From: a virus
Taxonomy: Duplodnaviria; Heunggongvirae; Uroviricota; Caudoviricetes
Length of the DNA: 4,726 bases
Virus record (IMG/VR): IMGVR_UViG_2671180846_000006
Strand: one strand, 5' to 3'
This document shows positions 1 to 3,493 of this stretch, one piece after another (positions within the stretch are counted from its first letter, which is position 1; every line of letters begins with the position of its first letter). The position numbers and the translations under genes were made by a program. A model generated the notes under the pieces. The model was given only the letters and a program-made list of their open reading frames with translations. It ran no database searches and was not told where the DNA came from.

Positions 1-215
1 TGCCACAACCGGAAGCGCACGTTCGAAGAAATCTAACGACAAGCCTTCTAAGGGAAAGAGCTTCGCCGTACGCTTTCGCGTTATGCCCTGACTTTTCAGG
101 GAAATATCCTTTCAGTAAACTGTCAGTACCGGATTCTTATCCGTGTCCGGCGCACGACCACACGTGACAGCGTGTTGGTCTCCATTTTTAACCCAGAACC
201 TCAATGGAGGATAAA

Positions 216-425
216 ATGCCAAACAAAAAAAGAAATCCGCTTATTGAAAAACAGATTGAATGCCTGGTAAATCAACTCAGGCAATCAGGGTTATTAAAAA
301 CTCATTCAGAGTTGAGGCTCACAGAATCAGCATTCGACGATAAATTAAATAATGTCCTTTATAATGGCATTATTGATTTTAATCGTTCTGTTGGTCGCCG
401 CGGCCCTGCTGGTGTTTCCTTATAA
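216..425 (+). CDS. Hypothetical small protein, 69 aa from the ATG at 216 (73 aa if from the in-frame ATG at 204)
   Basis: Only ORF on either strand across 204..425. GGAGGA at 206..211 sits 4 nt upstream of the ATG at 216. AT-rich codon usage like the adjacent 216-aa ORF. Stop TAA at 423..425 directly abuts the stop of the convergent minus-strand ORF. No family recognised by eye and no clear promoter upstream. Confidence 0.4.
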   Translation: MPNKKRNPLIEKQIECLVNQLRQSGLLKTHSELRLTESAFDDKLNNVLYNGIIDFNRSVGRRGPAGVSL

Positions 426-1064
426 TTACCAGTCAATCCAGAGTGGACCGTGTTCAGCGTAAATATAACTGTACACATCCAGATTATATTTGTGGTCTGT
501 TAAGAACAGGCCGCAAATACATGCCGAAGCTTCCAGTGCAGCGGCTCTGTTACTGAATAACCATGTAGCAACATTCCAGCGTTTTTCTGCATCCCAGTCT
601 TTCTCAAGGCCTGATACCATGAAGAAACCGTTAGTGTTGCCATCAAATAATTCTGTTTCCAAATTTTTAAGCAATGCCTGATGGACTCTTGCCAGGTATT
701 CCGCCGGAATTTCGCCACGAATTCTAATGAGATTGTCATAAACAAACATGTTCCCCGCATATGGCGATTTTTCTTTCTTGTTTTTTAAACCAGCATCATG
801 AGCAAACTGATCAATTTCTTCTTCCGTTGGTTTCGTATTGATGTTTTGCGCTGTCGTTTCTGCAATTTTATTTGCCATACTCTCTGAGTCGTGTTTATTT
901 ATAGACGCACAGAAATACAATCCGGTAAACGCATCGCGCACATTACGAGCCATATTATCAGTGTCTTTTTTCGTTACCGATTCCAATTCAAGTTCGTTCA
1001 GACGATGACGAAGTGTGTGTGCTGCAATCTCCTGGATTGAAGGAGGTAAATCTTTAAATTCCAT
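426..1064 (-). CDS. Hypothetical protein of unknown function, 212 aa from the ATG at 1064 (216 aa if from the ATG at 1076)
   Basis: Long uninterrupted minus-strand ORF. The ATG at 1064..1062 is preceded by GAGGT with a 5-nt spacer; the alternative ATG at 1076..1074 overlaps the upstream small ORF's stop (TGATG) but has no Shine-Dalgarno. Predicted hydrophilic, with no Walker, HTH or nuclease motif recognisable by eye. Low G+C compared with the replication genes. Confidence 0.7.
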   Translation of the reverse strand: MEFKDLPPSIQEIAAHTLRHRLNELELESVTKKDTDNMARNVRDAFTGLYFCASINKHDSESMANKIAETTAQNINTKPTEEEIDQFAHDAGLKNKKEKSPYAGNMFVYDNLIRIRGEIPAEYLARVHQALLKNLETELFDGNTNGFFMVSGLEKDWDAEKRWNVATWLFSNRAAALEASACICGLFLTDHKYNLDVYSYIYAEHGPLWIDW

Positions 1065-1075
1065 CGTCAACCTCA

Positions 1076-1228
1076 TCAGTCAGTGTTTCTGGCTAACCAG
1101 CGACGCGCGCCAGCTTCAGTTTTAAACGTTTTGCTTCTGGTATACGTCATCGCGGTAAACGTGCCGTCCAGGTTGGAGAATACTCCGCATACCAGAGATT
1201 CGTTGTTGCCAAGATTGAGCGTATCCAT
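1076..1228 (-). CDS. ydfA: YdfA-like small protein (about 50 aa)
   Basis: Translation MDTLNLGNNESLVCGVFSNLDGTFTAMTYTRSKTFKTEAGARRWLARNTD. GAGGT lies 4 nt upstream of the ATG at 1228..1226. It is the first gene downstream of the DicA-like repressor, as ydfA is in K-12 Qin, and I recall the K-12 protein as similar (from memory, not searched). The ORF track's 76-aa version (to 1306) would run through the operator and promoter region and has no ribosome-binding site. Confidence 0.65.
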   Translation of the reverse strand: MDTLNLGNNESLVCGVFSNLDGTFTAMTYTRSKTFKTEAGARRWLARNTD

Positions 1229-1305
1229 GTTGACCTCATTTCCCCTTAACGCCGGGGTAGCGGAACTGTTTGCTGAGAACACCGTGCGGTGTCTTGATGC
1301 AAGCA

Positions 1306-1334
1306 AGATTAGCCATGACTAACAATTTGGTCAA
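1306..1334 (-). promoter_or_regulatory. Putative sigma70 promoter for the ydfA-led operon (PdicB-equivalent)
   Basis: On the minus strand: -35 TTGACC (plus coordinates 1334..1329), 17-nt spacer, -10 TAATCT (1311..1306). An operator copy sits inside the spacer. Hexamers were found by eye; the -10 is only a moderate match. Confidence 0.4.
1309..1324. promoter_or_regulatory. Operator-like site O1 (TTAGCCATGACTAACA), presumed DicA-like repressor binding site
   Basis: 16-bp imperfect palindrome (TTAGC-CATGA-CTAA core). It lies in the spacer of the putative minus-strand promoter. The same 16-mer recurs at 1344..1359 (one mismatch) and, inverted, at 1853..1868. Confidence 0.55.
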
Positions 1335-1343
1335 GTATTTTTG

Positions 1344-1359
1344 TTTGCCATGACTAACA
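1344..1359. promoter_or_regulatory. Operator-like site O2 (TTTGCCATGACTAACA)
   Basis: 15 of 16 identical to O1, same orientation, centres 35 bp apart, just upstream of the putative -35. Confidence 0.5.
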
Positions 1360-1371
1360 TTTTGGGCAACC

Positions 1372-1403
1372 AAAAAGATAACGCATTGATTGCGTTATCT
1401 TTT
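1372..1403. terminator. Bidirectional intrinsic terminator-like hairpin at the 3' end of the DicA-like gene
   Basis: Perfect 9-bp stem GATAACGCA (1377..1385) / TGCGTTATC (1391..1399) with a 5-nt loop, extendable by A:T pairs. Flanked by AAAAA (1372..1376) on one side and TTTT (1400..1403) on the other, so it reads as hairpin plus U-tract on both strands. The stem includes the dicA stop codon (1395..1397). Confidence 0.5.
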
Positions 1404-1802
1404 GTTTGTTCGTTGACGGGCTTTTAATAACTCTTCAAAGAGTTTGTTGAAATTTTTTACTCGGGCGCGCATCTCGGTGAGCTGAGCATCCTGTTCTGAT
1501 TCAGGCAATGCATTAAAAAGCTCAAGGAGCTCATGTTCTTTGGGGGATAGAGCAACTGGCTCCTCAATAGGTGGTGATGGCTGCTTGTCTTCATCGCCAA
1601 ATAGAATCCATGTTGGCGAGCACTGCAGTACTTTGCTGAGGGCAAAAAGATTCTTTCCTGTAGGTTCGCTATCATCCCGCTCCCATTGTGAAACCGATAC
1701 GTGAGAAATTTTCAGGACTTTAGCAAGAGACCTTTGGGTGTATTTGAGGTTTTTTCGGCGATATCTAATGCGTTCGCCAATGGTTAAATTTTTTGTATCC
1801 AT
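1395..1802 (-). CDS. dicA: DicA-like prophage repressor (XRE-family HTH, CI analog, 135 aa, no C-terminal S24 peptidase domain)
   Basis: Translation MDTKNLTIGERIRYRRKNLKYTQRSLAKVLKISHVSVSQWERDDSEPTGKNLFALSKVLQCSPTWILFGDE... has an N-terminal XRE-type helix-turn-helix (QRSLAKVLKISHVSVSQWE) and a length and sequence I recognise as K-12 Qin DicA-like. Divergent from a Cro-like gene and flanked by repeated operators. Confidence 0.88.
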   Translation of the reverse strand: MDTKNLTIGERIRYRRKNLKYTQRSLAKVLKISHVSVSQWERDDSEPTGKNLFALSKVLQCSPTWILFGDEDKQPSPPIEEPVALSPKEHELLELFNALPESEQDAQLTEMRARVKNFNKLFEELLKARQRTNKR

Positions 1803-1824: not shown

Positions 1825-1853
1825 TTGACTATGTTTTTGTTAACATCTATTTT
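1825..1853 (+). promoter_or_regulatory. Putative sigma70 promoter for the DicC-like gene
   Basis: -35 TTGACT (1825..1830), 17-nt spacer, -10 TATTTT (1848..1853). Operator O3 overlaps the -10 and start region. AAGGTG ribosome-binding site at 1874..1879, 6 nt before the ATG at 1886. Confidence 0.45.
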
Positions 1854-1870
1854 GTTAGTCATGGCTAACA
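1853..1870. promoter_or_regulatory. Operator-like site O3 (TGTTAGTCATGGCTAACA), inverted copy of O1
   Basis: The reverse complement of 1853..1868 is TTAGCCATGACTAACA, identical to O1. It sits between the divergent dicA and dicC starts, overlapping the putative dicC -10. Confidence 0.55.
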
Positions 1871-2113: not shown

Positions 2114-2547
2114 TCACGGAAGCATTCTGGGCTCTGAAAGAACGCCCGAACATCGATGTTCAACGCATCACGTTTAATGATGGCGAGGTTGATCAACGGG
2201 CACTGGGCGTTAACCGGGTGAAGATATTCGAACGCTGGAAGGCTATCGACACCAGGGATAAGCGTGAAAAATTCACGGCGCTGATTCCGGCAATTATGGA
2301 GGCTATCCGGATTAGTGATTTCAGGTTGTACCGCGAAATTACTGACGGAAAAAGCATTACGTACATGATTGCCGGGTTAAACAAAGAATATGGCGATGTG
2401 GTGGAGTCCGGGCTGCTTTTTGCAGATCCAGCTGTTGTGGAACGTGAGACAGACGAGCTTATAGAAAAAGCAATCGCTTTCAAGCGTGCCTATCGTCACC
2501 AGTACCAACAAAAAGCCGGATGGAATTATGAGCCTTCTTTTTGCTGA
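2105..2547 (+). CDS. Probable YdaT-like protein (CII-functional-analog family), 5' end lost in the N-run
   Basis: This frame is open from the gap to TGA at 2545..2547. The visible 147 aa (...KIFERWKAIDTRDKREKFTALIPAIMEAIRISDF...ELIEKAIAFKRAYRHQYQQKAGW) resemble what I recall of Rac/CP-933P YdaT, and the gene sits in the CII position after the Cro analog. The ORF track's GTG start at 2218 is unlikely to be real because the frame is open upstream. Family assignment is from memory. Confidence 0.5.
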
Positions 2548-3493
2548 ACGCCCGCTGGTTATAAACACACAGCTGGCGATGAAGATTGGTTTAAACGAAG
2601 CCATTGTGTTGCAGCAACTGCATTACTGGTTGAGGGATACCAGTTCCGGCATGGAATGTGATGGCGTTCGCTGGATTTACAACACAACGGAACAATGGCT
2701 GGAACAGTTTCCGTTCTGGTCAGAGTCAACGTTAAAGCGTGCGTTTGCAAGTCTGAAAGCGCTGGGGCTTTTGCGTAGCGAAAAGCTCAATAAATCGAAG
2801 CGTGATATGACTAATTTTTACACAATTAACTACGATAGCGCGCTTTTAGATGATGGCAAAGTGAACGAATCCATCGGGTCAAAATGCGCCACTCCATCAG
2901 GTCAAAATGACACGATGGAAGAGGTCAAAATGAAACGTTCCATTGGTTCAAAACGGCCCAATGTCATCAGGTCAAAATGGCCCGATGATCCTACAGAGAA
3001 TACAACAGAGAATACAACAGAGAATAAAAAACTCTCTTGTCCGGACGCTTCGCAACCGGACGAGTTGACGGCTGAACAGGCGTTTTTAACCCGCCATCCT
3101 GATGCAGTTGTGTTCAGCGTGAAAAAACGCCAGTGGGGAACCCGGGAGGATTTGACATGTGCGCAGTGGATCTGGGGGCGGGTTGTAAACCTGTACGAAC
3201 AGGCTGCCAGTGACGATGGTGAGATCACGCGACCGAAAGAGCCCAACTGGACGGCGTGGGCCAATGACGTGCGCACAATGCGGATGCTGGATGGAAGAAG
3301 TCACAGACAAATTTGCGAAATGTTCAGCCGGGCACAACGGGATCCGTTCTGGATAAAAAACATCAAGAGCCCGGAAAAACTCCGTGAGAAATGGGATGAA
3401 CTGGTTATTCGACTGTGGCGTGGTCCCGCGCAGCGTTGCGTGAATCATATTTCTGAACCGGATACCGAAATTCCGCCGGGTTTCAGGGGGTAG
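2528..3493 (+). CDS. Phage replication initiator (lambda O-like replisome organizer) with iterons inside the coding sequence
   Basis: 322-aa ORF from ATG 2528 (MSLLFAERPLVINTQLAMKIGLNEAIVLQQLHYWL...); the track's 335-aa version starts at GTG 2486 with no ribosome-binding site. N-terminal winged-helix-like domain, then a low-complexity linker encoded by direct repeats, then a C-terminal domain. Immediately followed by a DnaC-like gene. Overlaps the upstream ORF by 20 nt. Confidence 0.75.
   Translation: MSLLFAERPLVINTQLAMKIGLNEAIVLQQLHYWLRDTSSGMECDGVRWIYNTTEQWLEQFPFWSESTLKRAFASLKALGLLRSEKLNKSKRDMTNFYTINYDSALLDDGKVNESIGSKCATPSGQNDTMEEVKMKRSIGSKRPNVIRSKWPDDPTENTTENTTENKKLSCPDASQPDELTAEQAFLTRHPDAVVFSVKKRQWGTREDLTCAQWIWGRVVNLYEQAASDDGEITRPKEPNWTAWANDVRTMRMLDGRSHRQICEMFSRAQRDPFWIKNIKSPEKLREKWDELVIRLWRGPAQRCVNHISEPDTEIPPGFRG
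2872..2979. repeat. Iteron array: 4 good copies and 1 degenerate copy of CATCAGGTCAAAATG at about 23-bp spacing (putative ori)
   Basis: Core GGTCAAAATG at 2877, 2900, 2923 and 2970, with a degenerate GGTTCAAAACG at 2945. The 15-mer CATCAGGTCAAAATG is identical at 2895..2909 and 2965..2979; 2872..2886 differs at one base. Located in the linker of the O-like gene, the classical lambdoid origin position. Confidence 0.6.
2994..3029. repeat. 12-bp tandem repeat ACAGAGAATACA x3 (third copy imperfect), encoding TENTTENTTEN
   Basis: Directly visible perfect tandem copies at 2994..3005 and 3006..3017, and an imperfect copy at 3018..3029. In frame within the O-like ORF. A-rich, followed by AAAAAA, immediately downstream of the iterons. 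Confidence 0.9.

Follow-up and report, generated by a model that had tools for sequence, protein, structure and literature searches.

The C-domain part of a two-module gene in a DicA-repressed prophage operon and a convergent small partner gene are exchanged as a cassette

We analysed a 4,726-nucleotide stretch of tailed-phage DNA (Caudoviricetes; IMG/VR record IMGVR_UViG_2671180846_000006), hereafter called the window. Our focus was a gene encoding an uncharacterised 212-residue protein and a second gene, convergent with it, that encodes a basic protein of 69 residues. The stop codons of the two genes abut. A preliminary description, made from the letters of the window alone, had picked out the larger gene and overlooked the smaller (216-425, plus strand). 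The window corresponds to the lambdoid prophage beside rspB in Escherichia coli O26:H11 strain 11368 and in many other Shiga toxin-producing E. coli (STEC), with 99.9% identity. The O26:H11 11368 context is referred to as locus L001, in which window position 1 equals L001 12001. Coordinates of all features are collected in Table 1.

The 212-residue gene sits in an operon of recognisable layout. A DicA-like repressor gene and, divergent from it, a DicC/Cro-like gene lie upstream of a YdfA-like gene. The promoter of the operon (TTGACC-17-TAATCT) holds one copy of the operator-like repeat TGTTAGTCATGGC in its spacer, as the preliminary description had noticed. The YdfA-like gene comes first. It is followed by a single open reading frame (ORF) whose first ATG overlaps the ydfA stop codon, again as described. 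In the O26:H11 11368 prophage, DicF and dicB lie ~550 and ~775 nucleotides beyond the stop of this ORF. After dicB, L001 continues with a DUF1482/ydfD-like gene, an exonuclease gene, xis and int. The marks of a dicBF-type operon were all found: a DicA-type repressor, an operator-bearing promoter, ydfA in first place, and both dicF and dicB downstream on the same strand. We conclude with high confidence that the 212-residue gene holds second place in a lambdoid prophage's early-left operon of the 'dicBF type', which DicA represses. We are similarly confident of the operon order, which is promoter/operator, ydfA, the 212-residue gene, dicF, dicB and the ydfD-like gene. The window itself ends just short of DicF and dicB, which lie ~125-540 nucleotides to the left of position 1, in the same orientation as the ORF. 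Within the window, Rfam detected no RNA family.

Related prophages show how the gene is accommodated. In IMG/VR loci that reach far enough, dicB is downstream in most cases. The 212-residue gene follows ydfA-ydfB in L018, and ydfB plus a ydfC-like gene in L017; in L094, too, a ydfC-like gene lies ahead of it. E. coli K-12 is without the two-gene cassette described below, and its 340-nucleotide ydfC-dicF spacer aligns with the conserved flank of that cassette. Because dicF and dicB are retained, and because the gene coexists with ydfB and ydfC, we regard it as an optional extra member of the dicBF-type operon. Hence, the suggestion that it occupies the slot of ydfB-ydfC-dicF-dicB does not hold.

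The longest form of the ORF has 216 codons (426-1076, minus strand) and starts at an ATG (1074-1076) that shares bases with the TGA ending the YdfA-like ORF (TGATG on the minus strand). This start is probably not in use. The ATG at 1064 is the most likely start, giving 212 residues, because GAGG is positioned 6 nucleotides upstream and because the homologues, the PHROG profile and the RefSeq entry all begin MEFKDLP. The preliminary description had left the length at 212-216 residues; the ORF is real and the shorter form is favoured. The contrast in G+C content that it reported is also real, if weaker than stated. Values are 41.0% for the ORF and 53.7% for the DnaC-like gene, not ~35% and ~60%.

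The product is, with high confidence, a soluble, acidic protein of two modules. It has an isoelectric point (pI) of 5.2 and a net charge of -10. Consistent with the preliminary description, there is no transmembrane-like segment (maximum KD19 1.16). AlphaFold2 (AF2) predicts the N-terminal module (N-module) to be a helical hairpin. PHROGs 1363, 9419, 6937 and 33007 match by their N-termini only. Similarly, ~45 further clusters at 50% identity, with lengths of 42-201 residues, match only residues 1 to ~50-90 and have unrelated C-termini. Among E. coli variants, DNA homology ends where the N-module does, at window position 857 or 909. Proteins with this module hold the same place in other E. coli prophages and in the functional phage mEp460. 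They also occur in the early-left region of Stx2a phages. In the Stx2a phage VT2phi_272 (L015 3504-3947) and 73 other phage records, the N-module heads a 147-residue protein. The gene for this protein of Stx2a-converting phages is downstream of recT and an exonuclease gene, in a neighbourhood that differs from the ydfA-dicB slot.

The remainder of the protein contains an alpha+beta domain (C-domain). Invariant positions in alignments of this domain include FDG..NG and W.FS....A.E. With Salmonella relatives in the alignment, AF2 modelled the C-domain with a pLDDT of 76 and a pTM of 0.70. The full-length model was poor (pLDDT 65), and Foldseek found no match in the PDB at E <=0.001. A profile search of 1.84 billion representatives identified two remote relatives of the C-domain only, both from Salmonella and both with other N-termini. 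The C-domain was present in 0 of 50,697 deposited phage genomes, where only the first 50-90 residues of the protein match. We conclude with high confidence that the N-module is common to a polymorphic set of early-left proteins and that the C-domain is specific to one cassette.

Database searches support the description of the family as uncharacterised. The sole profile match is PHROG 2151 ('unknown function'; E 4.7e-147), in which residues 5-216 of the longer ORF align with positions 1-212 of the 212 in the profile. Homologues form ~150 clusters (90% identity) in E. coli, E. albertii, E. marmotae and Salmonella, and every source names them 'hypothetical' or 'Ybl81' only. We found no significant match in Pfam or NCBIfam for either protein, for the separate domains or for the other cassette types. 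No component model of PADLOC-DB 2.0 matched either protein at E <=1, and profile searches of PDB sequences with three alignments (A3, A4 and A6) gave no match. The 212-residue protein thus belongs to no characterised family. Literature searches found no paper mentioning it, and none on ECs2212, the Sakai form of the 69-residue gene.

The gene is well maintained. Full-length homologues in E. coli, E. albertii, E. marmotae and Salmonella are 65-99% identical. The Sakai homologue, ECs2211, is located in prophage Sp11. Pairwise ratios of non-synonymous to synonymous substitution (dN/dS) are 0.15-0.40 for the gene; the C-terminal part has a value of 0.17 and the N-terminal part one of 0.46. We conclude with high confidence that the gene is genuine and maintained by purifying selection. 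Of 5,426 complete E. coli genomes, 600 contain C-domain DNA, at a total of 751 places; in 510 of those records the identity is 99% or higher. The carriers are mostly STEC, including O157:H7, O26, O111, O145 and O121, with up to 4 copies per genome. At least 80% of the C-domain DNA is covered in 597 of the 600 carrier genomes, and the domain is thus intact in nearly all. Frequent disruption, which would have told against the gene, is therefore not what the genomes show. Disruptions are rare and are exemplified by an IS100 insertion in E. coli RM13752 (L019 141-2954). There, IS100 splits the 212-residue gene and the 69-residue gene has an internal stop codon. This is a single case in which both partners are dead.

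The convergent gene also has the properties of a genuine coding sequence. Its dN/dS is 0.15-0.28, indicating purifying selection, and the C-terminal tail of the protein, GRRGPAGVxL, is conserved. The protein is basic (pI 9.7, net charge +3.6). It is predicted to be soluble and has no hydrophobic segment (maximum KD19 0.22). The G+C content of the gene is 37%. Codons 4-6 contain a run of seven adenines (A7). A frameshift allele with six adenines (A6) was found in 8 of 57 IMG/VR draft loci, yet in only 4 complete genomes (O26 RM8426 and three O145 strains); a control query for A7 in this count had no match, probably because of low-complexity masking. In our view, A6 mostly reflects errors in sequencing, or else is an uncommon (slippage) allele. 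No intrinsic terminator was predicted between the two convergent genes. Operon transcripts bound for dicF and dicB must cross the 69-residue gene antisense.

The 69-residue gene tracks the C-domain and not the N-module. In complete E. coli genomes it was found in 597 genomes at 744 places, compared with 600 genomes and 751 places for the C-domain. A query with the full ORF identified 888 genomes and 1,414 places, including copies that have nothing but the N-module part in common with it. Among 80 IMG/VR loci with the C-domain, 74 carry the 69-residue gene and 2 further loci stop at a contig edge.

Salmonella provides the stronger evidence for this pairing. A Salmonella C-domain that is 33-36% identical follows a different N-terminal module and lies directly after a P2-like C/Cox switch. 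It is convergent with a 69-residue gene that is 47-52% identical, and the 3' ends of the two genes overlap by 53 nucleotides. The pairing is also kept in a Salmonella form of 286-294 residues with a DicA-like helix-turn-helix (HTH) ahead of the C-domain. In P0142 and in the 294-residue protein of L012 (5094-5978, minus strand), this HTH resembles NF007257 (E ~1e-11). In these fusions, an N-terminal module specific to Salmonella precedes the HTH and the C-domain homologue follows it. Pairing is likewise retained where the Salmonella C-domain is a stand-alone ORF of 126-138 residues, 78% identical to the E. coli domain. In Salmonella L010 (4302-5627), the stand-alone ORF (5211-5627, minus strand) abuts the 69-residue gene. 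Next to it is a second N-module gene (4476-4835, minus strand) with its own convergent partner of 68 residues. Since this second gene and partner are present, L010 contains two tandem cassettes, apparently joined at repeated 'RLTME' start regions.

Alignment of multiple prophages revealed what is exchanged. A conserved flank runs from dicF to the Shine-Dalgarno (SD) sequence and ATG of the convergent gene (GGAGGATAAAATG). Divergence begins right after this ATG. Because homology in the flank ends there, the swappable unit comprises the 3' two-thirds of the 212-residue gene and nearly the whole convergent coding sequence. Both genes have their expression signals outside this unit, in the constant flanks. 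We conclude with high confidence that the exchangeable unit in these mosaics is the part encoding the C-domain together with the convergent 69-residue gene. Its boundaries, also assigned with high confidence, are the domain junction in the 212-residue gene and the start codon of the convergent gene. Other cassette types at this slot share the layout and consist of a 112/119-residue protein with a 64/68-residue partner, a 186-residue protein with an 84-residue zinc-ribbon partner and, in mEp460, a 121-residue protein with a 66-residue partner. The 3' ends of the genes in these other types overlap by 12-44 nucleotides. Among 80 N-module loci, three sampled types were paired 48, 23 and 3 times, with 0 cross-combinations. 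The low G+C content of the two genes (41% and 37%) is typical for accessory cassettes.

Table 1. Features of the window and of the adjoining part of locus L001.
Feature	Position	Strand	Evidence or remark
Conserved leader start, continuing outside the window to dicF and dicB	1-163	-	Alignment with K-12, mEp460 and other prophages
Conserved flank before the 69-residue gene	164-218	+	DNA alignment
Candidate promoter of the 69-residue gene, GTGACA-17-TTTAAC	164-192	+	Read by eye
SD and ATG of the 69-residue gene, GGAGGATAAAATG	206-218	+	
Convergent gene, 69-residue basic protein	216-425	+	WP_001133037.1; Sakai ECs2212; PHROG 4274 (E 1.4e-51)
A7 homopolymer	225-231	+	Codons 4-6 of the 69-residue gene
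Hydrophobic 36-residue ORF (MSFIMALLILIVLLVAAALLVF...; MSFIMALLILIVLLVAAALLVFPYNY...)	352-462	+	Out of frame in the end of the 69-residue gene; overlaps the 3' ends of both genes
212-residue protein coding sequence	426-1064	-	Stop 426-428; RefSeq WP_000394548.1; Sakai ECs2211; 'Ybl81'; PHROG 2151
C-terminal alpha+beta domain, residues ~96-212	429-779	-	Topology beta-beta-alpha-beta-beta-alpha-beta
N-terminal helical module, residues 1 to ~55-69 (MEFKDLP...NVRDAFTGLY)	858-1064	-	AF2 helices 8-24 and 32-55
Four additional in-frame codons (MRLT)	1065-1076	-	Start at ATG overlapping the ydfA stop (TGATG)
YdfA-like gene (DUF1391), first gene of the operon	1076-1231	-	Pfam PF07151 (E 2.8e-28)
Operon promoter-like site, TTGACC-17-TAATCT	1306-1334	-	Upstream of ydfA
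13-nucleotide operator-like repeat TGTTAGTCATGGC, copy 1	1312-1324		In promoter spacer
TGTTAGTCATGGC, copy 2	1347-1359		
Hairpin after the DicA-like gene	1373-1403		Inverted repeat I3 and terminator-like site
DicA-like repressor gene	1395-1802	-	NCBIfam NF007257 (E 1.2e-70)
TGTTAGTCATGGC, copy 3	1853-1865		Between dicA and dicC
dicB	L001 11463-11651	-	Annotated in L001
DicF RNA	L001 11826-11877	-	Rfam 75 bits; gathering score 48; E 5e-16

The likeliest single interpretation, which we advance tentatively, is that the C-domain and the 69-residue gene form an effector/antidote-like conflict module. The C-domain and the basic 69-residue protein would then be a cognate pair, probably binding each other directly and expressed under opposite regimes; our confidence in this is low. 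In the repressed prophage, a separate promoter would drive the 69-residue gene while DicA holds the operon off. Upon derepression, transcription of the operon would yield the 212-residue protein. Antisense read-through toward dicF and dicB would, at the same time, shut down the 69-residue gene. Such effector/antidote logic would be laid out like that of a pore-forming colicin and its convergent immunity gene. It could serve superinfection exclusion, or host takeover with self-protection. The opposite charges of the two proteins (net -10 at pI 5.2 and net +3.6 at pI 9.7) support the proposal. The 212-residue protein may act in exclusion, defence, anti-defence or takeover, as the preliminary description had suggested.

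Several points weigh against a conflict module. In 3 of the 80 IMG/VR loci (L094, L095 and L099), the C-domain gene occurs without the 69-residue gene and faces a different convergent gene, which has a zinc ribbon and a coiled coil. Hence, the 69-residue partner is not indispensable. Both families are confined to Escherichia and Salmonella, and for this reason few independent events underlie their association. Co-inheritance of abutting genes is, in any case, expected from mosaic recombination alone. The candidate promoter of the 69-residue gene was read by eye and is a weak match to consensus. Neither protein has homology to toxin, antitoxin, immunity or defence families in the Pfam, NCBIfam, PADLOC, PHROG and PDB-profile searches. 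Unlike a colicin immunity protein, the partner is soluble and basic, not located in the inner membrane; the cassette contains no lysis or export gene and the 212-residue protein is presumably intracellular.

A wider version of the conflict-module proposal is rather unlikely as it stands. The N-module proteins of enterobacterial prophage early-left operons would be a polymorphic two-gene conflict system, with a constant N-module, swappable effector domains and private convergent partners that are made in the lysogen and turned off upon early transcription. Logic resembling that of colicins and their immunity proteins, or of polymorphic toxins, would thus be at work intracellularly, between lambdoid phages that share a host or superinfect it. 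The ECs2211/ECs2212 cassette, which has spread through STEC prophages at DNA identities of at least 99%, would be the commonest type.

The two genes could instead be unrelated accessory neighbours, an explanation that is possible and, to us, somewhat doubtful. The 212-residue protein would work by itself as an early-lytic factor, for instance as an acidic protein for counter-defence or host takeover in a Ral/Ocr-like position. The 69-residue gene would be expressed in the lysogen and recombination in the flanks would account for linkage. Conserved DNA does flank the cassette on both sides, as is usual in lambdoid mosaicism, and the three loci that have the C-domain gene without the 69-residue gene fit equally well. 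So do the acidic, soluble nature of the 212-residue protein, its early place in the operon and the failure of either protein to match a known toxin or antitoxin. However, independence does not readily explain why the pair persists over ~65% protein divergence, with three N-terminal architectures and in two unrelated switch contexts (DicA/YdfA and C/Cox). Nor does it account for a junction that falls exactly at the domain boundary and the partner start codon, or for other cassette types that have private convergent partners with abutting or overlapping 3' ends. A regulatory cassette is distinctly unlikely. Here, an ACT/ferredoxin-like C-domain for oligomerisation or partner binding would tune the DicA/DicC switch or early transcription, and convergent transcription of the 69-residue gene would brake read-through to the toxic dicF-dicB in lysogens. 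Fusion of the Salmonella C-domain behind a DicA-like HTH (P0142 and the 294-residue L012 protein) and the tentative ACT-like resemblance described below are consistent with regulation. The convergent gene also separates dicF/dicB from the operon promoter, and no terminator is predicted. According to PMC10448788, dicB and dicF are toxic on overexpression and dicBp turns on spontaneously in a subpopulation of cells. Conversely, Pfam and NCBIfam identify no DNA-binding domain in the E. coli protein, K-12 and many other prophages control dicBF without the cassette, and basic charge is all that links the 69-residue protein to DNA or RNA binding.

Two further ideas fare worse. The preliminary description had proposed a payload replacing DicB and DicF, such as a new division inhibitor. 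The gene is indeed in the DicA-repressed operon and belongs to an uncharacterised family. Even so, this is very improbable, since this prophage and most related loci keep dicF and dicB downstream of the gene. The survey of synteny thus refutes replacement. Coexistence with ydfB and ydfC elsewhere points the same way, and the protein has no similarity to YdfC and no match to the DicB family. Slighter still is the chance that the hidden hydrophobic 36-residue peptide is a functional element resembling a type I toxin. Its ORF is present in the window and comparable hydrophobic ORFs occur in the close relatives L018 and Salmonella L010. They are absent from the distant Salmonella loci L006, L007 and L012, which keep the 69-residue frame. 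Purifying selection acts on the 69-residue frame, and T-rich second codon positions commonly yield hydrophobic off-frame ORFs. Hence, we rejected the peptide as a conserved element; it is probably a by-product.

In kind, the locus is familiar: the early-left operon of this lambdoid prophage has a mosaic slot, which is filled by an accessory cassette. Previously unreported is that, in the polymorphic N-module family, the pairing with a small convergent gene is conserved. The cassette occurs in about one in nine complete E. coli genomes, within an operon whose DicF and DicB products are known to act on the host. Should the pair prove to be an effector/antidote module, the dicBF-type operon would gain a third activity. 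There would also be a family of recombination-shuffled modules in polylysogenic pathogens, with a bearing on prophage competition, induction and the biology of Stx phages. If the genes are independent, the map of the locus is still corrected, two orphan domains are defined and clean domain boundaries are gained.

Other features of the locus were noted. Where the DicC-like gene meets the YdaT-like gene, the window is masked by a run of 51 N (positions 2054-2104). The corresponding O26 stretch is 4,800 bases long, 74 more than the 4,726 of the window. Taking the 51 N and the 74 extra bases together, ~125 real bases are hidden at the run. Within the replication-initiator-like gene (2528-3493) there are five direct repeats of 23 nucleotides (consensus CATCAGGTCAAAATG...; 2872-2987) and three ACAGAGAATACA repeats spaced by 12 nucleotides (2988-3029). 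They have the look of iterons of a lambdoid ori, contained in an O-like gene. In some related prophages (L003 and L018), RelBE is inserted between the repressor and ydfA. The O26 prophage also encodes hokD and a RelE/ParE-type toxin-antitoxin pair (L001 18525-19464).

The closest known system is the K-12 Qin dicBF operon (dicA / ydfA-ydfB-ydfC-dicF-dicB-ydfD). It shares the repressor family, operator repeats, promoter position and first gene with the window prophage, as well as the downstream dicF, dicB and ydfD-like genes. Qin differs in having neither an N-module gene nor a convergent gene, whereas the window prophage is without ydfB and ydfC. The 212-residue protein is unrelated in sequence to K-12 YdfC. 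Both proteins of the cassette have full-length matches in PHROG 2151 and PHROG 4274, families without functional information. In predicted fold, the C-domain may resemble the beta-beta-alpha-beta-beta-alpha-beta sandwich of ACT-like domains and of Prp/DUF464 proteins (1s12, 2g0i, 2idl and 4peo), the likeness to Prp being weak. It differs in having no Pfam ACT or DUF464 match, and its alignments contain no invariant His or Cys for the Prp catalytic dyad. Type II toxin-antitoxin systems are co-directional operons; here the two genes converge and each has start signals of its own. The sieB-esc, ral and rex genes of lambda and P22 are accessory genes in or next to a repressor-controlled early-left operon, and some are expressed in the lysogen. 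The cassette is analogous to these early-left exclusion genes in position only, without homology. SieB and Esc derive from one co-directional gene, whereas the cassette has two convergent genes. In pore-forming colicin operons, a convergent immunity gene follows a modular effector gene, which has a conserved N-terminus and an exchangeable C-terminus. There is no similarity in sequence or fold between these proteins and ours. The arrangement is nonetheless alike: a repressor-controlled modular gene abuts a convergent small gene, which has its own start signals and is exchanged together with the C-terminal part. A DicA-type repressor takes the place of LexA, and the promoter of the partner is predicted.

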